This document shows positions 1-37,228 of a stretch of 64,000 nucleotides of DNA, piece by piece. The DNA is taken from assembly GCA_964016885.1 (NCBI GenBank), contig OZ024745.1:102796001-102860000 (forward strand). The letters are read 5' to 3'. The notes below the pieces were generated by a model. The model did no database searches. It saw only the letters and a list, made by a program, of their open reading frames with translations, and was not told the DNA's origin. Every line of letters starts with the position of its first letter. Position 1 is the stretch's first letter. A program made the position numbers and the translations under genes. Source of the stretch: Eledone cirrhosa. Its lineage: Eukaryota.

Positions 1-817
1 CTCGGATTTACCAATGCTTTATATGTGAAATTTGGTAGACGGAAAGGTGCGGAAGCCCATCCTATGAACACACACACACACGCACGCACGCACGCATTAT
101 ATATATATTTATATATATATACATATAATACGTATATATATATATATATGTGTGTGTATATATATATACATACATACACGTATTTTCGCTCTTTATTTTC
201 TTTCTCGTTTTCTCTCATCACTCCTAACCAAAGTTCCAAATAACTTTTTTCTCCGCTTTACTCGGTTGCACAATTTCCTTGTTGTGCCCTAGTAGTAAGA
301 CTTTTTTTAAAAATTATATATATATATATCGACTCATAGTTTCCTTGTCTACTGAACCGTTTCTTCAGTCGTAAGACTTTCCTATTTGTTTGCGGTTTCG
401 TATTTCCGTTGTTCACTGTGTTGTTTGCCAATGTCATAAGACCTTTCATTCTGTATTTTCCGATAATTGTTGTACTGTTCCACACTCATATTTCACTATT
501 ACTAGATATTTTATAGCTGTACAGCTCGTTATTTCAAGCTGAAAGTCTTGTCACCCACTACCAAAAAGTAATGAGAAACAGTTTATGTTCCCATCGCAGT
601 ATCGTCCTCTTCGGAGGAGCTGGTTTGCCGAATTTTGCAGTGAAGCCATGTCGCACATCCTCCATGCTCTTGCCAGAATGCACACGATCATGTGTCCATA
701 CACTTGCAAGCAGCCTCTCTTCCAAACTGTAGCAGCTCTGAAATAGAAAATTATATTATTATTATTATATATTATAATTAACGATATTATATATTATATT
801 ATTAAAACAAAAAAATA

Positions 818-1262
818 ATTGTTTCTACGTCTGGCACAAGGCCAGCAATTACCCAGTACATTACTGGTTCTTTATTTTATCGACCCCGTAAGGATGAAAG
901 GCAAAGTTAATCTTGGCCTATCATCCATTAAAACAAAAAAATAATTGTTTCTATTTTTAGGCACAAGGCCAGCAATCACCCAGTACATTACTGGTACTTT
1001 ATTTTATCGACCCCGTAAGGATGAAAGGCAAAGTTAACCTCGGCGGGATTTGAACTCAGACTGTAAAGGGACGTAACTATGCTAGAAAGCATGGCGTCCA
1101 ACCCTCTACCGATACTGCCAATTAAAAAATAATTGTTTCTATTTTAGGCACAAGGCCAGCAATTATCCAGTACATTACTGGTACTTTCTTTTATCGACCC
1201 CGTAAGGATGAAAGGCAAAGTTAACCTCGGCCGGATTTGAACTCAGATCGTAAAGGGACGTA
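818..1262 (-). mobile_element. Three tandem, partly truncated copies of a ~185-bp tRNA-derived SINE (octopus OK-like; family A)
   Basis: Repeated core aattgtttcta..ggcacaaggccagcaatt.cccagtacattactgg..ctttattttatcgaccccgtaaggatgaaaggcaaagtt at ~818, ~942 and ~1129. Reverse-complement B box (ggatttgaactc) in two copies. Confidence 0.85.
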
Positions 1263-2071
1263 ACGAAAGTTAAAACAATATGTGACAAGGGTGACAAGAC
1301 TTTCGGACCACCCTGTACATACTAGAAATAAAGTAGCAAACTAGCAGTTGACACAGGAGATAGAAGCGTTTGTTTGTTCCTCCTTTGTGTTTTTTTTTTT
1401 CCTTTTCGCGTGCAATTGTGTGTTTGTTTACGTTTTTTATTTTTGTTTATTTTCGTTCGATAGAGATCGATGAACTAAATATAAGGCTTGAAAAATAAAT
1501 ATTAGAATTGATATGGTCGATTGAATTCATCGAAGCTGGTGCTTCAGCATAGCTGTGGGTTAATGACTAACACCCAGTAAAAGAGGAATAAGTTTTATTT
1601 TTGCTGCCGATGTTGCAATTACATACTATGAGACACACTATTCGCGAAACACTGCTCTACGTAGTCGCTCGACCAGATAGTAATAACATTTTTCTCAAAT
1701 CACATCACCAACCAACCAACCAACCTATACGTCTTAAAAGAAAAAAAAATACGGAAGACACATTGGACCATGTAATATCCTAGATAAACAAATAAGACGA
1801 GGTGATTACAGCCGGAACGACTGTTTAATCAGGGCCGACCTGGGAGCTAAACAACATAATTCGTTTCAATCAAATTGTTTACGTAATATATTTGTCTCCC
1901 AGTAGAGCGACGTTGTGTCCAGTGTAAGAAGGCATTAATGTGAGTGTGTTGATCTGTGTATTAGTGAGATTGCTTCTGAATTTATGGGAGTGAGTTTGTG
2001 TGTGTGGGTGTATGTATGTATATATGTGTATATATTTCTCTCTATGTATATATATATCTACATATATATGT

Positions 2072-2290
2072 GAAGGCGTGTGGCTGAGTGGTTAGAGAAT
2101 TGGATTCGCAATCGTAAGGTTGTGAGTTCGATTCCTGGACCAGGCGACGCGTTATGTCCTTGAGCAAGACACTTTATTTCACGTTGCTCCTTCTACCTGG
2201 AGTTGCGACCGATAGATAGTATTAGCAATTGGAAAGACCAACGGAAACATTGTTCCCTCGGTCCGATTTGACGAAAGTCGATCGTTCCTA
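2072..2290 (+). mobile_element. tRNA-derived CORE-type SINE (OR-like; family B)
   Basis: A box tggctgagtggtt, B box gagttcgattcc, CORE-like gtccttgagcaagacactttatttcac. Homologous to 11081-11225. Confidence 0.75.
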
Positions 2291-2296
2291 TATATA

Positions 2297-2351
<55 letters not shown>

Positions 2352-2410
2352 ATGTATGTATGTATATATGCGTATATATCTCTCTCTCTGTATATATATC
2401 TACATATATA

Positions 2411-2441
<31 letters not shown>

Positions 2442-2758
2442 GTGTGTGTGTATGTATGTGTGTATGTATATATATATGTGTGTGTGTGTGTATGTATATA
2501 TATATATATGTGTGTGTGTATGTACATATGTATGTGTATATATATGTGTGTGTGTGTATGTATATATATGTGTGTGTATATATATATATATATATGTGTG
2601 TGTATATATATGTGTATGTATGTATGTATGTGTGTGTATATATATGTGTGTGTGTGTGTATATATATGTGTATGTATGTGTGTGTATATATATGTGTGTG
2701 TGTGTGTGTATATATATATATGTGTGTGTATTTATGTATGTATGTGTGTGTATATATA

Positions 2759-2846: not shown

Positions 2847-5800
2847 TGAGGGGCGGGGCGATAAAAGGAGCCCTAACCAAATGCTCCTCCCACACAAAGC
2901 CGGCCAGTCTACCGCGGCTGGCGGTTTTACCCTTGCAAGCAGTCGAAACCATCACAATAGAAAGAACTTGATTCTTGGCGCATGGAATGTGCGTACCCTC
3001 ATGGATATGGAAACCACCTTGAGGCCAGAGAGAAGAACTGCCCTCATAGCAAGGGAATTAGCTCGCTACCGGATCGACATAGCCGCCCTCAGCGAGACTA
3101 GACTTGCCGAAGAAGGATCAGTAGCAGAACCGAAATGAGGCTACACCTTCTTCTGGAAGAGCAATGCAAAGGACGAGGACGGAATCCACGGGGTATGCCT
3201 GGCCATCAGGACTTCACTCTGCAAGCAGCTACCAGACCTCCCAACACCTGTGAGCGAGCGGCTGATGATGCTCCGCCTCTCCCGCGACCCATCTCGGCAT
3301 GTCACAGTCATAAGCGCGTACGCCCCCATTCTCACCAGCAGCGATGAAGCAAAGAACGCTTTCTACGAGGAACTCAACGCACTCGTGAAGGGCCCCCCCC
3401 TCCCAAAGCGATAAAATCATCCTACTGGGGGACTTCAACGCAAGAGTCGGGTATGACAGTAGCAACTGGAGAGACGTGCTGGGACCTCACGGTGCAGGGA
3501 AGCTGAACTCTAACGGCCTCATACTGTTGAGTTTATGCGCCGAGAACGACCTCACCATCACCAGCACACTGTTCCGCCAGGCAGACAAGTTCAAGATGAC
3601 ATGGTTGCACCCCAGATCCAAACAGTGGCATCTGATTGACTTTGCCATATGCCGCAGGAGGGACATCCGTGACGTCAGAATCACCAGGGCCATGCGTGGT
3701 GCAGAGCGTCGGACCGACCATCGCCTTGTCAGGACCATCCTGTTACTGCACATCATCCCGACGCATCACAAGACTCCGAAAATCTGTAGGCCAGCTTTCG
3801 ACGTCGCACGACTCAAGCAGCCAGAGCATCGTGATGCGTTCGCGGAAGACGGCCGGCTGAATGCCCATGGACCAGTGACCGGACCCCCAACTCAACAGTG
3901 GGACCAGTTCAGGTCGCTGGTACAGAGTCAGCCAAGGCAACCATTGGGCCGAGGAAGAGAGTCCACCAGGACTGGTTTGATGAAAACGATGAGCGCATCA
4001 GACAACTCCTCCACCTCGAAGCGCGACCGCTTCAAGCACCTCCAGAGGCAGACCCAAGCAGCACTACGCAGAATGCAGGAGAAGTGCTGGGAAAAGAAGG
4101 CCGAAGAAGTCGAGAGATACGCTGACACAAAGAACTCCAAGATGTTCTTCAGCGCCATCGGAGACGTCTACTGAGCCCCCAAGCCTGTCACCATACCACT
4201 GCTGTCTGCTGACGGCTCGATGCTGCTGAAGGAGAAGCGCAGCATCAACTCGAGGTGGAGAGAGCACTTCAGCAACCTGCTCAACAGGCCCTCCACTGTC
4301 GACCCTGCCGCCCTCGATCAGGTCCCACAGAAGCCCGTAGTCGGCAGCCTTGGTGTTTCCGAACGGCTCCGATTCCTCTCCGCCCTAGCGCACCTGGAAT
4401 TGCCGTATCAGGTTCACAAACGTTGGATGAAGTCACGAAGGCAATCAACCAGACCAGCTCAGGAAAGGCCCATTGGAAGGACGGGATTGCTGCCGAGATC
4501 TTCAAGTCGGCCGATCCAGCTGCCCTGGGGGCCTTCCACACACTCCTCGTCAGCATAGGGGAGGAAGAAGAGGTGCCCAAAGACTTCAGAGATGCCACAG
4601 TTGTCTCGCTTTTTAAGAACAAAGGCAGCAAAACTGACTGTGGCAACTATCGGGGCATTTCTCTCCTGTCCATCTCTGGGAAGGTCTGGCTCGAATCATG
4701 CTCAACCGCCTCATTGCCAACATCTTGAAGGAAAACCTGCCTGAAGCCCAGTGTGGGTTCCACCCAAACCGCAGCACGATCGACATGATCTTCTCTGTAC
4801 GCTAGGTGCAGGAGAAGTGTGTCGAGCAGAACATGGACCTCTTTGCCGTCTTCATAGATTTGACGAAGGCATTCGACACTGTCAACAGGGAAGCCCTCTG
4901 GTTGATCCTGTCGAATTTTGGTTGCTCGACAAAGTTTGTGAACCTGATACGGCAATTCCAGGTGCGCTAGGGCGGAGAGGCATCGGAGCCGTTCGGAATC
5001 ACCAACGGCGTCAAGCAAAGATGCGTGCTGGCTCCCGTCCTCTTCAACCTGTTCTTCACCTGCGTGCTCAATCATGCCGTCAGGAACCTCGAGCTCGGAT
5101 ACAGACTGGACGGCTCCCTGTTTGACCTGCGGCGCTTGACGGCCAAGACAAGGACCGTGCAGAGGATCGTCCTGGAAGCACTTTTTGCTGACGACTGTGC
5201 TCTCATGGCCCACAGGGAGTCTGACCTCCAACTCATCGTCAACAAGTTCGTGGAGGCCTCCTCTTCGATCTCACGATTAGCCTTAGCAAGACTGAGGTCC
5301 TGTTCCATCCTGCACCTCCCTCCGTCGCCCACCCTCCTATCTCCATCGGAGGCACCCAGCTAAAGACGGTAGACGACTTCAAGTACCTCGGCAGTGTCAT
5401 CAGCAGCGATGGAAGCCTCGACAAGGATATAAACGCCAGAATCTGCAAGGCCAGTCAAGCCCTCGGCCGCCTGAGGACACGCGTCCTGAACCAGCACAAC
5501 ATCAGGCAGTCCACCAAGCACAAGGTGTACAGGACCGTTGTTCTCACCAGCCTCCTCTGCGGATGTGAGACATGGACCCTGTACAGAAGGCACCTGAAGC
5601 AGCTGGAACGGTTCCACATGCGCAGCCTTCGGTCAATTATGAACATCAAATGGCAGGACAAGGTCTCCAACATCGAAGTTCTTGACATGGCTGAGACAAC
5701 CAGTGTCGAAGCTATGATACTGAAGAGCCAACTTCGATGGGTGGGACATGTCATCCGGATGGACTATCACTGGTTTCCGAAGCAACTGATGTATGGGGAA

Positions 5801-6174
5801 CTCTGTTCGGGGAAACGAAAGCGGGGCAGGCCTCTCAAGAGGTTCAAAGACTGCGTGAAGTCCAGTTTCAACAACACTGGAATTTCACCAAAACAACCCG
5901 AGTCTCATGCTCAGGACAGCACTGAGTGGCGAGCCCTTACCAGACGCGCCAAAGACTCTTTTGAAGAGAAGAGACGGGCAGAGGTCACTGAGGCCCGTGA
6001 AAGGAGGAGAAAGGCATCAACAGCTGCCCCAAGCGACTCCGGTCTCTCCCCCTGCCCCCACTGTCCCCGGACCTGCAAGTCAAGGATCGGCCTCCACAGC
6101 CACCTTCGTGCCCATGGCAGACGGGAACTAAAATAAAGAAGATGTCATCATCGTTTACGATGGACAACCAAGAT

Positions 6175-7704: not shown

Positions 7705-8667
7705 TATACAGTAATCCCCCGCTATATCGCGGTTCACTTTTTGCGATTCCGCTACATCGCGGGTTTTTCTTTGTAACGTATCTAATTTCCTATCGCGGTA
7801 ATCCCCGCTACATCGCGGATTTTTTTGTTAGAACATATCTATTTTCTTATCGTGGTACGTACATCTGAATAAAAAGTGTTTAAATTTTAAACTTATTAAA
7901 TAAGTTTCGATGTGATTGAAGTGTATAGCGTAAGGAAGGGGCATGTTTTTATTTTTCATTCCATTACTGTTCTACTGATTGTGTTTTTGTTCTCTAATCT
8001 ACTATAAACCCTTCATAGATTGACGTATACAGTAATCCCCCGCTATATCGCGGTTCACTTTTTGCGGTTCCGCTACATCGCGGGGTTTTCTTTGTAACGT
8101 ATCTAATTTCCTATCGCGGTAATCCCCGCTACATCGCGGATTTTTTTGTTAGAACATATCTATTTTCTTATCGTGGTACGTACATCTGAATAAAAAGTGT
8201 TTAAATTTTAAACTTATCAAATAAGTTTCGATGTGATTGAAGTGTATAGCGTAAGGAAGGGGCATGTTTTTATTTTTCATTCCATTACTGTTCTACTGAT
8301 TGTGTTTTTGTTCTCTAATCTACTATAAACCCTTCATAGATTGACGTATACAGTAATCCCCCGCTATATCGCGGTTCACTTTTTGCGGTTCCGCTACATC
8401 GCGGGTTTTTCTTTGTAACGTATCTAATTACCTATCGCGGTAATCCCCGTTACATCGCGGATTTTTTTGTTAGAACATATCTATTTTCTTATCGTGGTAC
8501 GTACATCTGAATAAAAAGTCTTTAAATTTTAAACTTATTAAATAAGTTTCGATGTGATTGAAGTGTATAGCGTAAGGAAGGGACATGTTTTTATTTTTCA
8601 TTCCATTACTGTTCTACTGATTGTGTTTTTTTTCTCTAATCTACTATAAACCCTTCATAGATTGACG
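7705..8667 (+). repeat. Three head-to-tail ~321-bp units, each beginning with a pogo/Tigger-like transposon terminus
   Basis: Units start TA+CAGTAATCCCCCGCTATATCGCGGTTCAC at 7709, 8030 and 8351 and are near identical. Confidence 0.9.
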
Positions 8668-12194: not shown

Positions 12195-14695
12195 ATGAAT
12201 GAGTTTTTCTTGTCCCAACTTGTCCTTGCACCAACGAGGCATCAGAAGAACATTCTGGATCTAGTGTTTAGTAACCACACTAACACTATACATAATATTA
12301 CAGTGGAAAAAACCCTTCTCTCAGACCATGACATGGTTCTTTGTAACCTGAGATTCCACCAGCCGAAAGCTAATCCCAGGGTCCTCTCTCCAGCCCACCC
12401 ATTTGATAACATGGATCTCCACAATGCCAACTGGGATGCAATTATGAACGAACTATCACATGTCGACTGGTCTTTTACACACGCGCACACTTCCACCAAC
12501 ATAAAAAAATCTTGGCAGACCTTTGTAGACACTGTCACAAATATATGTACAAAACACACCCCACCAAAACCTGTGAATAAAACCAAGTGCAGTATCCTCC
12601 AAAACAGAAAAACAATTATCAGAAAAATAAAAAGAACAAACAAAAAAATTAACACACTAAAATACTGCCAACAGCAACACATACATTCAATGGCTATCAC
12701 CCTGCTTGAGTAAAAAAAATATAACCTCCAGCAATGCATGATGACCATCATCAATAACCAGAGAATAGCTGAAGAGAGGTGGGCCATTGAGAAAATCAAA
12801 CTCAACCCCAAAGTGTTCTTCCCATTCGCTAAAAAACACAAGGTCACCGTCTCCACTGTTGGCCCCCTAGTTGATGAAAATGGCACACTCCAGGCCAATG
12901 CCAAAACCATGGGCGAGATACTGCAGAAACAATACTGCTCTGTTTTCAGCAACCCTGATATGGCCGGTCTGAGCCGTATCCGTGATATTAACCCCCAACA
13001 CACTATATCAGACATAACGTTTGGCGCCCCTGATGTCTTAGCGGCAATAAACGAAATTAAACACAATTCAGCAGTAGGCCCCGGCAGGTTCCCTGCTTGT
13101 GTCCTGAAGGTGTGTCGACACCAACTTGCAACTCCTCTTGCTAATCTGTGGAGGAACTCACTGGACACTGGCTATATTCCTGAAAACTTTCTGTCCCAGT
13201 CCGTTGTCCCAGTCTTCAAAAAGGGAAATAAGTCCCTTGCAATGAACTACCGTCCGATCTCACTCACCTCTCATATTATCAAGGTATTTGAGAGGGTGGT
13301 GAGATCACGAATAACCCACTTTCTTGAAAGCAACGGCCTGCTGAACTCCAACCAACATGAATTCCGTAATGGAAGGGACTGCCTAACGCAGCTCCTGCAT
13401 CACTTTCGCGAGTTTTTGAGAGCCTTGGGAGAGGGCTCCAACACTGATGTCATCTACCTTGATTTCAGCAAGCCCTTCGACAGGGTTGATCATAAGTTTC
13501 TACTGAAAAAACTATCCAATGTTGGTGTCTCTGGAAGGTTACTACAGTGGATCAAATGTTTCCTGACAGGCATAACCCAGCATGTTGTAGTCGAAGGAGT
13601 AAAATCAAGCCCTGCCAAAGTCAGCAGTGGCGTTCCACAAGGCACTGTGTTGGGCCCACTTCTTTTCATCATCTACATTAATGACATTACTGACATCATC
13701 AAACACAGCAACATCAGAATCTTCGCAGATGATTCCAAGCTCCAAAGGGTCATCAATGAGGTGGGTGACCGGACTTGACTTCAGTCAGACCTACTGGCTG
13801 TTATCCAATGGCAGAGATGAATAATATGCTGTTGAATGAGGATAAATTTGAACTAATCCACTTTGGAAAAAAGGATGCCCTGAAACTACCATACTCTCTT
13901 CCTTCGGGTGAAACTCTAGTGGCTTCCAATAACATCAGAGACCTGGGAGTAATTGTGGACAACAATATAAGCTGGGCCACTCATATAAACAGCAAAGTTG
14001 ATATGGTCCGCAGAATGTGTTCCTGGATTCTCAGAACTTTCCAGACGAGAGATATCCACACTGTTGTCCTTCTCTTCTCCACTTTTGCCCGACCCCACCT
14101 TGAAGACTGTTGTCCACTGTGGTCACCCCCACACGAAAAAAAGTATCATGAAAGTTGAAGCACCCCAAAGGTCAATTACAAAAAAGTTAGTTGGCATGAC
14201 AGGCCTTGCTTGCCTATTGGGGTCGATTAGAAAAGCTCAAACTTTATTCTCTTCAACGTTGCCGTGAGCGCTTCATTATCTGTATGATGTGGAAAATATT
14301 CCATCAGCTTAGCCCAAATGATGTTGGCATCACCTTTAGTGTACACCCAAGACTTGGACCATGTGCTATCCGCCCACGACAAAAATCCCACTCGCATCAC
14401 ATAACAACAATACGGCACAATTATTTCACCTCAATTGGCCCTGCACTCTTTCACATTAGACCAAAACACATCAAAGCAGAGACAGACCCCATCAAGTTCA
14501 AGAAGTCTTTGGATAAATTCCTTCAAGAAATCCCGGATAAGCCTCCTACACCCGAATATGCCTCCGTAAACAATAACTCTCTGCTCGAGTGGGCCATGGT
14601 GTCCAAACACTTATTTGTAAGACTTCGCCAGGTGGTGGTGGTGCTATTAAGTTAGACATGGCCTGGGCTAATACTGGCCGAAACCTATCAAAGTT
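12195..14695 (+). mobile_element. 5'-truncated CR1-group LINE ORF2 (endonuclease C-terminus and RT), disrupted
   Basis: PTR..NILDLVFSN, SDHDMV, NYRPISLTS, YLDFSKPFDRVDH, GVPQGTVLGPLLFIIYIND, IFADD, RDLGVIVD, across ORFs 12171-14655. Confidence 0.92.
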
Positions 14696-30339: not shown

Positions 30340-32320
30340 CACTATGTAACATATTTTTTGTTCCCCGGTTCTAAGTGTTATTTCATGGTTTGTTATATCC
30401 CATTATTATAAAAAAAACACTATTATTTAATCAGAAGTTTGGGTTTGTGGTCAGGAGTTTGATATTTCGAAATTTTCATATTTTTCAAGAAAAAACACTT
30501 TTTTTTAAAAATTTATCAGTTCATATAATTAAATCAACAGAGTATATATTTATTTTATTACACAAGCTTATCAAAAGCAAACAAGTAAAAACAAATAACA
30601 CTTATAAAGCAACTTATACACGTCAGAAATGACTAGATTTCCTGGATTTGCGGTTGTAATCCAGGTCGCATTCCCGCACTAGCCCCCAGATATAGTCCCC
30701 CATCATTTTTTCATTGTAGTGGTCCTTATACCTCCGCTCTATCTCTTTCACATCTTGGTGGAATCGTTCGCCTTGTTCTTCTGAGTAGGTGCCCATATTG
30801 TCCTTGAATTTTTCCAGGTGAGCGTCCAGCATATGGAGTTTAAGCGACATCCTGCATCCCATGGCGCCAAAAGCCTTTATCATATCCTGCACCAGTTGCT
30901 GGTAGTTTTCAGCTCTATAGTTGCCCAGGAAGCCCTTAACAACTGCCTTGAAACAGTTCCATGCTGTTCTCTCAATCCTATTGAGCTTATTGGAGAACTC
31001 AGTAGACTCAAACACCTTCTTTATCTGAGGTCCAACAAAAATTCCACCTTTGATTTTGGCCTTAGATAACTTGGGAAAGAACTCAAAAAGGTACTTAAAA
31101 GCGCTGATTCTTGGTTGAGAGCCTTCACAAACTGCTTCATCAACGCCAACTTAATGTGCAGTGGCGGCATGAGCACAATCCTGGGATCAACCAGTGGCTC
31201 CCACATGACGTTCCGGGTCCCAACTACAAATTCTGTTCACTGCTCCCAGTTCTTTCTTTTGCAGTGGTCAGAGGTGGCTCTGCTGTCCCAAAGGCAGAGG
31301 AAGCATTGGAATTTGATAAAGTCTTGGAGTCCAAGCAGGAAAGCCACCATCTTGAAGTCTCCAATGATTTCCCAATTGTACTGGTTGCATTGCAGAGCTT
31401 CCAAGAGGACTTTCACACTGTAGTAATCTTCCTTCAGGCAGACTGAATGAGCTAGGGGCAGTGTCGGGAACTTGTTTCCATTGTGGAGGAGGACAGCCTT
31501 CAAACATGTGGTGGAGCTGTCTATAAATAGCCACCACTCCTTGGGCACAAACGGCACCCCAATAACATCAAACAGTCCAGGCATGTCATGGTAGAAGCAG
31601 AGGCCATCTCTAAGGGTGTTAAAGCCTGAGAAAGGTTTGTGTCGACTTCTCTGACTTATCACCTGCACTTCCTCCTTGACCAAGTTCCACTGCTTCATCC
31701 TGGAGACGAATAGCTCTGCATTGGACTTGGTCAGACCCATATCCCTGACCAAGTCATTGACTTCTTTTTGGTTTGGGAAGTGAGGAACTTTTTCTGGTAC
31801 CTCAGGCAGGTAATCCAAGTCCTCAGCATCCATCTCCTCCTCTTCATCAGAATACTTGTCTTGGAAAATAAATTTAATATGCAATACAAAATAAATATTG
31901 GAAAGGGAAATACATATTTAAATAATATAAAAGAACACTAATAATACTAATGAAAATTCGTGCTTAAAACACAACTCACCCTTTATTCAGGGTGCGAAAA
32001 TCCAGTATCAATAAATCTCTTTAATCCACTTTTTAACAATTTTATACTTTATTGCACTTTTATAATTTTCTTTAGGTATTACTCTTTATTTTATAATTTT
32101 AATTTAACCTGAAACATATATAAAAAAATCATTTAACATAAGCAAATTAAACTTACATACAACGTAAAATCCCACATAATTCTAGTGAATAGCTTAGAAT
32201 TTTTACAAACCCAAACTTTTAACTGTTTAATAGCACTTTTTTATTTATTGGGACCTAAACAACACAAAAAAAGTGATTACAAGCCAGGAACAGAGAAAAA
32301 AAAATTTTTGTTACACAGTG
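30340..32320 (-). mobile_element. Chapaev3-type (CMC superfamily) DNA transposon, internally deleted and frameshifted
   Basis: TIRs CACTATGTAACA (30340) and TGTTACACAGTG (32320), TAA on both sides. Transposase motifs FIDSS..CLKAVLLHNGN, IIGDFKMV, PPLHIKLALMKQFVKAL, SLKLHML.AHL and EQGERFHQD. Confidence 0.85.
30623..31860 (-). pseudogene. Chapaev3 transposase pseudogene (three frame pieces; upstream GT-AG intron ~31860-31979)
   Basis: ORFs 31237-31884, 31021-31206 and 30623-31015 join into one transposase. Donor GGTGAGT near 31979 and acceptor ttttccaag near 31860. Confidence 0.8.
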
Positions 32321-33676: not shown

Positions 33677-33793
33677 AACGGGTTACCATGCGAAATAAAT
33701 ACTTATTCGGGGGCTAAAAAAAGTGCATGGGCACCAACGGAAAAAGGGGCATCCGGTTTGCCGCCTTTGACAGTGCATTTGCTATTAACCAAA

Positions 33794-33832
<39 letters not shown>

Positions 33833-33847
33833 ATGCAGATATATAGT

Positions 33848-33853
33848 TTTATT
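33848..33853 (-). terminator. AATAAA polyadenylation signal of the viral transcription unit
   Basis: tttatt on the + strand, ~80 nt after the NS1 stop. Confidence 0.55.
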
Positions 33854-33935: not shown

Positions 33936-35054
33936 TTAAAGTTCTTGAGTGAATGGTTCTGGAGAAGGAGCGTCTTTGTTCGACTGCATCATTTTTTTGA
34001 ATCTGCTCGTTCCTTGAATGGTACTGACGTGCGTAAACATGTTAGATATACTACGCGCGATCATTGATTTGCCTGTGTTAGGCAGGCCGGTGAATACAAG
34101 CAAGTTTGTTTTGGCTTTGTATTTATTAAGCAAATCCCAAATACATTTTACAAGTTCTTCTTCGTCTATGTCTTGTGTCATAATTATTGATCTAAATATT
34201 TTCAACGAAGTTTCGGTATCCATCCATAATTTGGTGTTTTCAAATTGTTTCCAATTCATATTCTCGAACTTCTCTTTGAATGGCATTATCAGTGTTTTCA
34301 GTTTCACGCATTCGAGTACTTTCTTCATGACGCTGTCGTACATGGGATGACTGATAGCGCGCATGAAATTTTCGTTGTTTGCTCGGTTAAGCCAGTGTGT
34401 TTTCATCTCCTGTTCGTTTCGAAATTTTTTTGATGTGAATATATACGTCAGGTAGTTGAATAGAGTTAAAGTCGTACCACTTCTGCTTTTGAATGTCGGT
34501 TCGTCCGTGGCATGTCTTGTTGATGTACTCGTTTTAGGTGTTGGGCTACATTTAGGTACGTATTCTTTCGAGCACCATTCTGCAAATTCAGAGTTTATAG
34601 AACCGAGGCCTTTTATCAGTAAATATCTCGGTGGTTGGCAGAAGTAATTGGCCATGCTGCTAGGGAACTTTACTCTTTGACACTCTGGTATGTATCGCGC
34701 TAACTGTGTTCCCTTTTTGTACAAGCTTCTCACGTATTTGAGACGTTGGTTTTCTCCTGGTCTTATCTCTGAATTCCATATGATATGGAAGTGGTTGAAC
34801 GCATTCCATTCCTTTTTGTCGCATATTTTTGATTCTTTTGGATGGTAAATTACTGTTGCCTTGTTGATTTGAATAAATTCTATTATTTTTCTGTTTGCAT
34901 TAATTAGAAAGTTATTCTTGTATGCCCCTTCTTTTTCGTCGAAATCGTTTGTTGTTATTTCGTCGTGTTGTATCGGAACTCTACCGTTGTCCCAACTGAA
35001 GTCCGTTTCAAGTATCCAAGGATAAATGCACATGTACATTTTTATTCCTCTTTT
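33936..35054 (-). CDS. NS1: Parvoviral NS1/Rep exon 2 (HUH endonuclease and truncated SF3 helicase)
   Basis: HUH motif NHFHII (34785-34793), Tyr motif ANYF, Walker A LLVFTGLPNTGKS (34065-34088). Walker B and motif C absent. Preceded by acceptor ccattttatatttgcAG. Confidence 0.85.
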   Translation of the reverse strand, partial: KRGIKMYMCIYPWILETDFSWDNGRVPIQHDEITTNDFDEKEGAYKNNFLINANRKIIEFIQINKATVIYHPKESKICDKKEWNAFNHFHIIWNSEIRPGENQRLKYVRSLYKKGTQLARYIPECQRVKFPSSMANYFCQPPRYLLIKGLGSINSEFAEWCSKEYVPKCSPTPKTSTSTRHATDEPTFKSRSGTTLTLFNYLTYIFTSKKFRNEQEMKTHWLNRANNENFMRAISHPMYDSVMKKVLECVKLKTLIMPFKEKFENMNWKQFENTKLWMDTETSLKIFRSIIMTQDIDEEELVKCIWDLLNKYKAKTNLLVFTGLPNTGKSMIARSISNMFTHVSTIQGTSRFKKMMQSNKDAPSPEPFTQEL

Positions 35055-35093
35055 CTGCAAATATAAAATGGATAGATTTGTTGTAATATTACT

Positions 35094-36662
35094 TTAACGA
35101 TGAGCTTGTCGGGTTTTACCGACTCTCGTTATTTCATAATTACGTAAACCTTGCGGCCATTTACATAGATTTGTTTTGGCTGAATTTTGTATTGTTGCAT
35201 TGTCTTTTCCCCATGCCATCCAACCCATGGTTTGTGGACTGCCAGAAATATATTCGAAATCTATTTCAGAATGATAAGTTATTGTGATCATGAATGATAT
35301 TTTAGCCGGATTGTTTTGAGAATCTAGAATAGGTACAGAATCTAAAGTAGCTATTGGCGGTGGATTAGATGGATTTATTGGAAACTGTGTTAAATGTGAT
35401 CTGCCAGTGTTTTGTTCTTCATTTGATTTATCTACCGCCATTGATTTACTCCATGCCCCTTTTTCCGTTGGTGCCCATGCACTTTTTTTAGCCCCCGAAT
35501 AAGTATTTATTTCGCATGGTAATCCGTTAGTTAGTTTTATTGTTGGTGGTTCGTATGTAGAATTAAATGCATAATAGTTCATCATATTGAACCAACTTGG
35601 AGTTCTATTTACCCATGTATATCCTGCTGTGTCCCCAGCGTAAACGAATTGAAATTGACCAGTGTTTAAATAAGACAATATTTCTTCTGCTGGTATTTCT
35701 TGTTCTGTAGGTTTCGCTGCCTTAGTATCTTGCCATAACCACCAATCTTTTCTAATTAATCTATTTGTAATGCATTGATTTAGTTTCCCTTCTTCCCTTG
35801 TTAATGGTACGTTATGTGTCCAATTATTGTTTAAATGTCCTATTAAGTATGTTTGATTAGGAAATAAACAGTATTTATTATCGACGTAATGTATCATCCA
35901 TGGTCTTGTATTGAATGTTGTGTTAGTTGTAGTTGTATTTTGTAATGTTCCTAATTCGTCTGTTAAAGGAATTATATTTGATATTTGATACCCACATGAT
36001 TTAACTCTGAAATTATTGCAAGGTGTTAAATATGTTTCTAATTCTGCTATTGTCATACTAGCTTTTAATTCTGTATATGGTATGTATGATGCTCTGTGTT
36101 TTATTGTTAATTCTATGTATTCATCATCATGTGTTTTGTATATTGCTTTATCTGTAGGATTATCCGAACAGTTTATGTAGTGTATGAAAGTTCTTGAAAA
36201 TTTTTTTGAAACGATTGGATTTTTATCGCCTATGTCTGGTGGTTGATCTCCACTTGCCATTGCTGCTGAGCCCCCAGGAGCTGGACCTACATGTGGATCA
36301 CCCATGTCTACTGTTTGACTATTAATTCCGCTGTCTTGTGATACAAAGTCTTCGTCTGATGCGTCGCAAAGGTCTTCTTGATTTTTCTTAGATTGTTCTT
36401 CTTCTACTCTTCTTTTTTTGTTCGCCGGTGGCATAACCCAATTCTTAGCTTTGATTGTGTTTGCTACTACGAACGCCGCTACTCCGCCTATATTTTCAGA
36501 ACACTGTATTAATCTATTATCTGCTTCTGCTATATCTACCTCTGTTTTACCGTATTCTATGTCGTGTATTTGACAGCATTTATCTAATTCGTTAACAGGT
36601 TGTTTTTGTAAATTGTTTGTGTATGGACCACAATAATTATAACCTGGTAAATGTAAAGGCAT
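35094..36662 (-). CDS. VP1: Parvoviral capsid protein VP1 (522 aa) with N-terminal PLA2 domain
   Basis: LPGYNYCGPY...VNELDKCCQIHDIEY...D (Ca loop and HD catalytic motif), NLS-like PANKKRR, Gly/Ala-rich PGGSAAMASG, Y-I-P motif typical of the start of the jelly roll. ORF uninterrupted. Confidence 0.9.
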   Translation of the reverse strand: MPLHLPGYNYCGPYTNNLQKQPVNELDKCCQIHDIEYGKTEVDIAEADNRLIQCSENIGGVAAFVVANTIKAKNWVMPPANKKRRVEEEQSKKNQEDLCDASDEDFVSQDSGINSQTVDMGDPHVGPAPGGSAAMASGDQPPDIGDKNPIVSKKFSRTFIHYINCSDNPTDKAIYKTHDDEYIELTIKHRASYIPYTELKASMTIAELETYLTPCNNFRVKSCGYQISNIIPLTDELGTLQNTTTTNTTFNTRPWMIHYVDNKYCLFPNQTYLIGHLNNNWTHNVPLTREEGKLNQCITNRLIRKDWWLWQDTKAAKPTEQEIPAEEILSYLNTGQFQFVYAGDTAGYTWVNRTPSWFNMMNYYAFNSTYEPPTIKLTNGLPCEINTYSGAKKSAWAPTEKGAWSKSMAVDKSNEEQNTGRSHLTQFPINPSNPPPIATLDSVPILDSQNNPAKISFMITITYHSEIDFEYISGSPQTMGWMAWGKDNATIQNSAKTNLCKWPQGLRNYEITRVGKTRQAHR

Positions 36663-36672
36663 TCTGACTTAC

Positions 36673-36726
36673 CGCCAAAGAAGTAATCATATCTCGATCT
36701 CTCGTCTTTAAATCTTCGTAATTCAT
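36673..36726 (-). CDS. NS1: Predicted NS1 exon 1 (MNYEDLKTRDRDMITSLA)
   Basis: CAAC-ATG context and 18 codons ending GCG|GTAAGT (phase 0), in frame with exon 2 after CAG at 35055. Confidence 0.7.
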
Positions 36727-36808: not shown

Positions 36809-36924
36809 TTTTATATCTCGATTCTTGCTGACGTTAGCATATTGAATTACTGTCACGTGGTTCTATTTATACTTTTGCTAACGCAAGCATTATTTTTTGC
36901 TGATGTAGCTTTAATATTGCGTCA
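36809..36924 (-). promoter_or_regulatory. Viral left-end promoter
   Basis: TATAAATA (36864-36871), TATAAAA (36809-36815), E-box CACGTG (36854-36859), CRE half-sites TGACG (36829-36833 and 36920-36924). Confidence 0.6.
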
Positions 36925-37228
36925 TTTCTTAACTGTCAAATCTTGCTTTGTAATTTGATATCTTTGCCTGTCCCCTCTCCTAACTGTGCTATGCACTGAA
37001 CTTTTGGATAGGAGACCTGACCGGGAGGGAGGGAGGTTGAGGTTCATTACAAAGTTATAGCGTAAAGGATCTTCACGATTACCTATCCGCTAAATTCTTT
37101 AGATTCCTCAACCTCCCTCCCTCCCGGTCAGGTCTCCTATCCAAAAGTTCAGTGCATAGCACAGTTAGGAGAGGGGACAGGCAAAGATATCAAATTACAA
37201 AGCAAGATTTGACAGTTAAGAAATGACG
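36920..37228. repeat. Parvoviral terminal hairpin (telomere and replication origin)
   Basis: Arms 36920-37042 and 37106-37228 are exact 123-bp reverse complements. The 63-nt centre pairs imperfectly (aaag/cttt, tagcg/cgcta, agg/cct, atc/gat). Confidence 0.92.

Follow-up and report, generated by a model that had tools for sequence, protein, structure and literature searches.

The 64,000-nucleotide window studied here (contig OZ024745.1 of assembly GCA_964016885.1, positions 102,796,001 to 102,860,000) carries on its minus strand, between positions 36726 and 33936, an element related to parvoviruses. The open reading frame (ORF) of its capsid protein (VP) is located between a short ATG-led coding segment and the body of the non-structural (NS) protein NS1. 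The locus raises the question of whether the capsid gene of a parvovirus-type virus is nested inside an intron of its replicase gene, as proposed in a first-pass annotation of the letters, or whether the arrangement reflects rearrangement or incidental RNA processing. The nested, spliced layout is very probably the correct one. Its parts, read from the sequence and, for the intron, also from junction-spanning contigs, are the following:

36673–36726, minus strand: NS1 exon 1, 54 nt, 18 codons, phase 0, with CAAC-ATG at 36726
35055–36672, minus strand: NS1 intron, GT..AG, 1618 nt, with the whole VP ORF inside
35094–36662, minus strand: VP ORF, 1569 nt, 522 amino acids, ATG at 36662, stop codon ending at 35094
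35055–35093, minus strand: pyrimidine-rich gap of 39 nt behind the VP stop, closed by the YAG acceptor with its AG at 35055
33936–35054, minus strand: NS1 exon 2 with an HUH-type motif and Walker A, a defective copy with a 372-residue body and a deletion near 34003
36637–36726, minus strand: exon-1 frame in unspliced RNA, read as an upstream ORF of 29 codons and overlapping the start of VP

Re-reading of the minus strand reproduced all previously given coordinates to the base; exon 1, the donor, the VP ORF, the gap behind it, the acceptor, the intron, the NS body and the TATA boxes were each recomputed with identical values. The donor GTAAGT starts at 36672 and is the sole GTAAG between 37240 and 33700. 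The donor and acceptor are both in phase 0, and the joined product has 18 + 372 = 390 residues. Excision of the intron removes the entire VP ORF; therefore, the spliced RNA codes for NS1 and no capsid protein. Pfam searches identified a PLA2-like domain in VP (PF08398, residues 2–40, E = 2.4e-13) and Parvo_NS1 in NS (residues 273–345, E = 2.8e-6).

The length and seamless phase-0 joint of the 390-residue product agree with the first-pass annotation; however, the product is not a whole NS1. The NS body of a sibling copy that is 99.8% identical has 554 residues, and the 372-residue body in the window results from an in-frame loss of 182 codons. The loss begins just after Walker A and eliminates the segments that we take to be Walker B, B′, motif C and the arginine-finger region. 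The copy in the window is therefore unable to make a working helicase. Thus, the layout proposed earlier stands, but the integration and rearrangement of this copy, and the defect in its helicase, had been overlooked.

The genome (3.0 Gb, 1796 contigs) was scanned for relatives, which yielded 59 NS matches (84 candidates scored) and 78 VP matches (83/91 scored), many with stop codons or frameshifts. Both genes of the lineage that includes the window element, hereafter lineage A, are present in 24 stretches, which are the window and 23 of the 56 fetched loci; four of the 24 represent one near-identical strain. VP is followed by NS on the same strand in 22 of these stretches, over a range of NS identity from ~29% to 100%. 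A 3570-nt contig of public sequencing run X7, from another organism, is colinear with the element over 3.5 kb with 390 other letters. Judged by this recurrence among relatives, the nesting is a genuine layout and not an artefact of rearrangement.

The splice signals are retained together with the gene order. Outside the strain of the window, 19 non-identical VP starts were counted; a false VP-start match inside NS (L046:4967) was left out, the VP start of L059 is replaced in that locus, a match to VP residues 1–40 on contig C1 stands outside the count, and the donor position of L064 was taken from a separate donor analysis. The sequence GT(A/G)AGT is positioned exactly 7 or 10 nt upstream of the VP ATG in 17 of the 19 starts, and the remaining two are decayed copies with one altered donor base. 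All seven copies of the window strain likewise have the donor. The background frequency of GT(A/G)AGT in the fetched loci is 358 in 846,096 positions (4.2e-4 per position), and the recurrence of the donor at these two distances is therefore beyond chance. The 54 nt before the donor form an ATG-led, stop-free exon of 18 codons, again in 17 of the 19 starts. The length of 18 codons is kept even in L060 and in both starts of L074, the exon-1 peptides of which cannot be aligned with that of the window. Among the 11 alignable copies, the identities at the three codon positions of exon 1 are 0.70, 0.77 and 0.58, and single-base codon differences are synonymous in 164 cases and non-synonymous in 71 (55 non-independent pairs of the 11 copies). 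By these measures, exon 1 evolves as coding DNA. A TATA box is present 85–101 nt upstream of exon 1 in 9 of the 11 copies.

At the other end of the intron, a pyrimidine-rich YAG follows VP by 26–38 nt in all 14 other VP ends found by motif, and it is in frame with NS in 13; the single out-of-frame acceptor is followed by a frameshift a few codons further on. Four VP ends were missed by the motif: L055 and L106, which have no NS downstream, and L063 and L060, which are considered below. As far as sequence comparison can tell, the splice signals are under selection. The first-pass annotation had proposed to check whether relatives retain exon 1, the donor and acceptor and the placement of VP ahead of NS, and the relatives do so. 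Neither of the two findings that it had named as refuting its proposal was borne out.

The junction itself was found in public sequencing runs. The contigs of 4 of the 23 listed runs (X1, X7, X10 and X23) were aligned to the sibling copy, and 13 joints were seen; the list includes no run recorded as RNA, which is not informative about expression. One of them has GT..AG ends and skips exactly 1618 nt, which corresponds to the joint 36673^35054 of the window; the other 12 lack GT..AG ends and probably derive from diverged paralogues. The joint is present in run X23 (organism C, study P7), where the NS contig has 0 other letters, and in run X10 (organism A, study P3), where the contig has 229 other letters over 1304 nt and hence represents a diverged relative. 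The junction for which a search had been recommended therefore occurs in contigs of two runs, from two organisms and two studies. The exon-1 side of the joint spans just 29–30 nt. X23 and X10 both also contain unspliced contigs, in which exon 1 continues into VP or the acceptor is read through.

A second deep lineage in the same genome, lineage B, provides a comparison. Its NS1 is ~23–26% identical to that of lineage A (74 matches of 81 scored, some of which belong to lineage A), and its VP carries PLA2. VP precedes NS on one strand at L046 (461–3920, contig C12), L093, L095, L097–L100 and L102. Lineage B is without a coding exon 1: its left end opens with a TATA box followed by the VP ATG, NS starts from a separate ATG, and no conserved acceptor is present. 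In four of six copies, a TATAAA is located 55–86 nt upstream of the NS ATG, inside the last codons of VP. These signals suggest that lineage B is probably a two-promoter, VP-first genome. Its unsplit NS1 has 19 residues before the point that matches the start of exon 2 of lineage A, where exon 1 provides 18; therefore, exon 1 is probably the N-terminal segment of the nuclease domain. A split VP of lineage B at L046 was considered as a conserved feature and rejected as a local duplication.

The expression of the nested genes can be considered with four further features of the window:

36866–36871, minus strand: upstream TATAAA, the position of which is not kept among copies
36810–36815, minus strand: TATAAA 89 nt upstream of the exon-1 ATG, the likely promoter
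33848–33853, minus strand: AATAAA 83 nt past the NS stop
33799–33827, minus strand: 29-nt T run downstream of the AATAAA

We infer that a single promoter at the left end would read exon 1, VP and the NS1 body in turn, with one poly(A) site behind them. Splicing would join the 18-codon N-terminal exon to the nuclease-helicase body, and the RNA that retains the intron would be the VP message, in which a short upstream ORF precedes VP. At both donor spacings of 7 and 10 nt, the reading frame of VP is +1 relative to exon 1, and the exon-1 frame ends just inside VP; the synthesis of VP1 from such RNA would thus require leaky scanning past two AUGs. VP1, with its PLA2, would most likely result from leaky scanning in which the AUGs of exon 1 are bypassed. 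A shorter major capsid protein may be initiated at Met77 or Met120, both conserved, in frame in VP and candidate starts of putative shorter isoforms, by scanning or re-initiation. None of the eight out-of-frame AUGs between VP Met1 and Met120 has a purine at position −3, compared with 32 of 59 downstream (three non-independent copies), and this weak context is compatible with leaky scanning. The ratio of NS to VP would be set by the efficiency of splicing, and a timed early-to-late change is plausible. An AATAAA just past the acceptor (35046) was considered as a VP-specific poly(A) site and rejected because it is not conserved.

It is possible that the nesting and the splicing of NS1 are real and that VP is translated from its own short-leader RNA starting in or just after exon 1, in which case the switch would be a choice of promoter or start site. 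Such an RNA would avoid the two upstream AUGs and the overlapping upstream ORF, and lineage B shows a TATA box, then TCAGT, then the VP ATG. Very short VP leaders occur in insect densoviruses. However, the conserved TATA box is the one upstream of exon 1, and none is conserved 25–30 nt before the VP ATG. The weak contexts of the out-of-frame AUGs suit scanning, although they would also suit scanning from a short leader. Overall, a separate VP RNA is the main alternative but appears rather unlikely.

A further explanation holds that the virus is VP-first with two promoters, that NS1 starts at an early Met of exon 2, and that the splice is incidental host processing of endogenous copies. An in-frame Met is indeed located near the exon-2 start in most copies, the database gene models of relatives begin at the exon-2 Met, lineage B seems to work in this way, and two published genomes have VP upstream of NS according to their description (PMC9001828). 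By contrast, an incidental splice would not retain an 18-codon exon, a fixed donor spacing and a phase-0 acceptor over identities from 29 to 100%, nor would it yield the identical junction in two organisms. This explanation is very improbable.

The junction in the runs could also be a processed DNA copy (retrocopy) instead of RNA, since X23 has no record of the kind of run and that of X10 is a guess. However, exon 1 joined directly to NS was not found in the scanned genome, where all seven exact exon-1 copies and all motif matches are followed by the donor. X23 comprises 88 million letters, compared with ~1,400 million in three runs of the same study, and has an excess of A>G/T>C differences (155 versus 54) that resembles RNA editing; both are weak hints that X23 is RNA. 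A retrocopy is very improbable, and it would itself require a spliced RNA, so the main claim would be unaffected. L055 was considered as a genomic retrocopy with exon 1 fused to NS, and rejected because its NS start is duplicated instead.

An ordinary NS-then-VP genome that was rearranged, or is read across a concatemer junction, is largely refuted as the source of the layout. The heavy rearrangement of the integrations by fold-backs and inversions and the mosaic L055, with a VP piece after NS, lend this idea some colour. However, the left hairpin and promoter region are directly upstream of exon 1 and VP, the right hairpin is directly downstream of NS, and 22 of 24 stretches as well as the 3570-nt contig of X7 show the same arrangement with the same spacing.

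Several observations weigh against the nested, spliced layout. All the DNA evidence comes from endogenous copies, and an exogenous genome of the lineage was not recovered in viral_contigs or metagenome_contigs (one viral_contigs match is without a locus). Runs X1 and X7 have unspliced contigs only. The kind of run is uncertain for both runs with the junction, as given above, and the contigs provide no strand, start, end or level of the RNA. Exon 1 or the donor is damaged in 4 of the 19 VP starts, which are decayed. L063 retains no clean acceptor, and the phase of that in L060 is ambiguous. An in-frame Met is found 5–8 codons into exon 2 in most copies and makes an alternative NS1 start possible. 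Two stretches depart from the gene order: L055, a mosaic with a C-terminal piece of VP downstream of a truncated NS, and L075, where an NS tail is upstream of a VP start. These points are included in the high probability, short of certainty, that is given here to the nested layout.

The element is part of the host chromosome. It is flanked by host microsatellites and repeats within a large contig, and these flanks, the decayed paralogues and the chromosomal location identify it as an endogenous parvoviral element. Its ends in the window consist of the following:

33753–33798, minus strand: right-end remnant, cut at the start of the terminal motif common to both ends, identified by comparison with copies
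33677–33752, plus strand: inverted VP piece of 76 nt (residues 379–403) at the junction with a host microsatellite, identified by comparison with copies
36920–37228, no strand assigned: left end, comprising the terminal hairpin (core ~37021–37127) and the remnant of an inverted head-to-head copy, identified by inverted-repeat analysis

The hairpin noted in the first-pass annotation is present as an inverted repeat with perfect 123-bp arms (36920–37042 and 37106–37228) and an imperfect 63-nt loop (z = −34); however, part of this long repeat is a head-to-head junction with an inverted neighbour copy. The same junction is found at L042, there with two diverging VP genes. In the sibling copy, both genome ends are palindromic, share an 18-nt motif, have unlike tips and are separated by ~3.9 kb between the hairpin axes. 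The integrated copies carry head-to-head and tail-to-tail junctions, which are consistent with rolling-hairpin intermediates. Read from these structures, the integrations are rearranged replication intermediates. One strain is present on four contigs with ~99–100% identity, and its integrations are therefore very recent. The element in the window would thus derive from a replication intermediate that was rearranged and recently integrated into the germline. The parvovirus-type virus concerned would measure ~3.9 kb between its hairpin axes and probably infects octopuses.

Several observations accompany the integrated copies. Several copies have an extended T stretch behind the poly(A) signal, immediately internal to the right hairpin (window 33799–33827, the right end of L045, and L046 near 4480–4560). 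In X23, the spliced contig without mismatches terminates close to the fold-back breakpoint of the copy on contig C14 (L041:4928 / L044); together with the A>G/T>C excess, this endpoint hints at transcription of an integrated copy into RNA that becomes double-stranded and edited. Pieces of lineages A and B are adjacent or interleaved at L045/L046, L050, L069, L071, L075 and L055, which suggests co-infection with joint integration, or insertion hot spots. A 370-nt segment at L046:4112–4481 and 8297–8659 (97.6% identical) is located upstream of both A and B elements and contains a short Q/N-rich ORF of ~70 codons. At L054:2045–5380 (contig C18), an NS fragment is in frame with a retroelement ORF, presumably integrase-like by its motifs, over more than 1100 codons with one stop. 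At L061:2485–3390 (contig C20), a highly diverged VP-like ORF of 21–23% identity has an in-frame Q/P-rich stretch and an acceptor-like site upstream; it may be a capsid-derived exon taken up by a host gene. Elsewhere in the window, two overlapping ORF remnants of 175 and 226 residues (30623–31917, minus strand) resemble a decayed DNA-transposon gene; a Pfam search with them gave no convincing match, and a related ORF is present at L045:543–1541. Decayed endonuclease and reverse-transcriptase ORFs at 3050–6136 and 12714–13778 (plus strand) are, from their motifs, presumably of the long interspersed nuclear element (LINE) type.

The named close relatives of the element are Octopus vulgaris gene models only, with 38% identity for the capsid protein and 61% for NS (database relatives in this species include CAI9722210-15), in agreement with the mollusc lineage proposed earlier; judged by these relatives, the host is probably an octopus. 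Of the HUH endonuclease and superfamily 3 (SF3) helicase of a parvoviral NS1 (PMC13426907), the element in the window shows HFHII, Walker A and the Parvo_NS1 domain, and its siblings show Walker B, B′ and C. The genome of ~3.9 kb with palindromic ends falls within the 3.6–6.2 kb with terminal hairpins given for Parvoviridae (PMC10267136), and PF08398 corresponds to the PLA2 in the VP1 N-terminus of most members. The separate NS and VP cassettes included in the same description (PMC10267136) are not found; both genes are present but interleaved. The element works like a parvovirus. Because the feature of separate cassettes fails, it is called parvovirus-type here and no formal membership is claimed.

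With regard to the jelly-roll VP of a T=1 parvovirus capsid, comparison of the VP profile with PDB gave 6WH3, the capsid of Penaeus monodon metallodensovirus (PmMDV; E = 5.4e-9 over 55 positions), and 9NEK, Syngnathus scovelli chapparvovirus (E = 0.0018). The predicted structure of VP is a low-confidence model with a mean predicted local distance difference test (pLDDT) score of 28.7. An Atlas search with VP gave a top cluster at 0.95 (Denso_VP4 in 25% and VP1_2 in 14% of members) and a second set, also at 0.95, of smacovirus capsids; the leads for the N-terminal half of NS reached at most 0.80 and were HUH Rep clusters. A quick helicase tree was built from 95 of 107 rows (12 dropped for short coverage), with the top 94 of 150 listed representatives and one named virus protein as the only named reference, and no entry from the International Committee on Taxonomy of Viruses (ICTV). 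In this tree, lineage A is part of a clade of 17 rows of unnamed proteins (Shimodaira–Hasegawa-like approximate likelihood-ratio test (SH-aLRT) 98) that does not include the named virus protein, and lineages A and B are placed in separate supported clades on an unresolved backbone. The database NS1 relatives P0002, P0004 (a 4017-nt contig), P0020, P0023 and P0071 begin no earlier than the first strand-like motif or else open with an F-F-S run, which is like a read-through pyrimidine tract. These starts weakly suggest that an exon 1 is missing from many members of the clade.

Partial precedents for the layout exist. In Planococcus citri densovirus, the main NS1 RNA joins a short exon (160..220) to a body (880..2516) (PMC5818608). 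As in the octopod element, a short 5′ coding exon is connected to the NS1 body and another ORF (NS3, 160..873) is mostly removed as an intron; however, the removed ORF is non-structural and shares the start codon of the exon, and VP is on the opposite strand (PMC5818608). In the octopod element, it is the complete capsid gene that is spliced out; it is encoded on the same strand as NS1, in another frame, and begins with an AUG of its own. Boca-, erythro- and amdoparvoviruses (PMC12298888) and mouse kidney parvovirus (PMC6631224) have one left promoter, RNA processing selects the protein, and large introns take out upstream coding sequence. In those viruses, NS is on the left and VP on the right, and splicing removes NS to express VP (PMC12298888, PMC6631224, PMC9896142). 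The present element is reversed: VP is spliced out to express NS1, and unspliced RNA would be the capsid message.

PmMDV (Metallovirinae) and Syngnathus scovelli chapparvovirus provide the best PDB matches to the sequence of the capsid core of this VP. PmMDV presumably has NS on the left and VP on the right and is not known to have PLA2, whereas the present VP has it. Unlike the octopod element, for which shorter capsid proteins are predicted, both viruses have one VP only (PMC12115719), and the organization and transcription strategy of PmMDV have been said to be unique (PMC11357303). The Swazi bat megaparvovirus lineage has, as summarized in the 2026 overview, a PLA2-containing ORF upstream of NS1 that ends at a predicted splice donor; its genome is ~6.4 kb, and the capsid ORF is a separate cassette after NS1 and is not nested (PMC13426907). 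The genome types named in that overview are monosense, ambisense and bipartite (PMC13426907; PMC10267136).

The first-pass annotation had known of no described layout of this kind. Full-text searches of the literature, the scope of which excludes most subscription papers, including that on PmMDV, as well as figures and supplements, returned neither a capsid gene located within an intron of NS1 nor a description of an octopus parvovirus. The VP-before-NS order alone is, however, published: in MT138329 and MT138334, from Anser indicus cloacal swabs, a structural ORF is upstream of a non-structural one (PMC9001828). These genomes exceed 7 kb and have an extra large ORF, and the accessible text, by which alone they were compared, does not mention an intron or nesting (PMC9001828). 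Mollusc parvovirus-like sequences outside known genera have been reported; their gene order is not stated and octopus is absent from the main text of the accounts available (PMC5013282, PMC11357303). A wider proposal, that the element belongs to an undescribed, subfamily-level and still circulating mollusc parvovirus lineage, that regulated intron retention from a single promoter is its only switch from replication to packaging, and that lineage B is the kind of intermediate from which nesting could have developed, is tentative and falls a little short of an even chance.

The separation of NS and VP cassettes, either monosense with NS before VP or ambisense, is part of the definition of parvoviruses, and here the cassettes are interleaved, so that each transcript must choose between replicase and capsid. 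The element thus offers a system with one intron for studying the balance of replication and packaging in a small DNA virus. The copies also record that at least two deep parvovirus-type lineages have invaded the germline of their host repeatedly, in part very recently; the host is a probable cephalopod, a group from which the literature searches returned no described parvovirus. Annotation from the first Met of the NS ORF would miss the true N-terminus across the clade.

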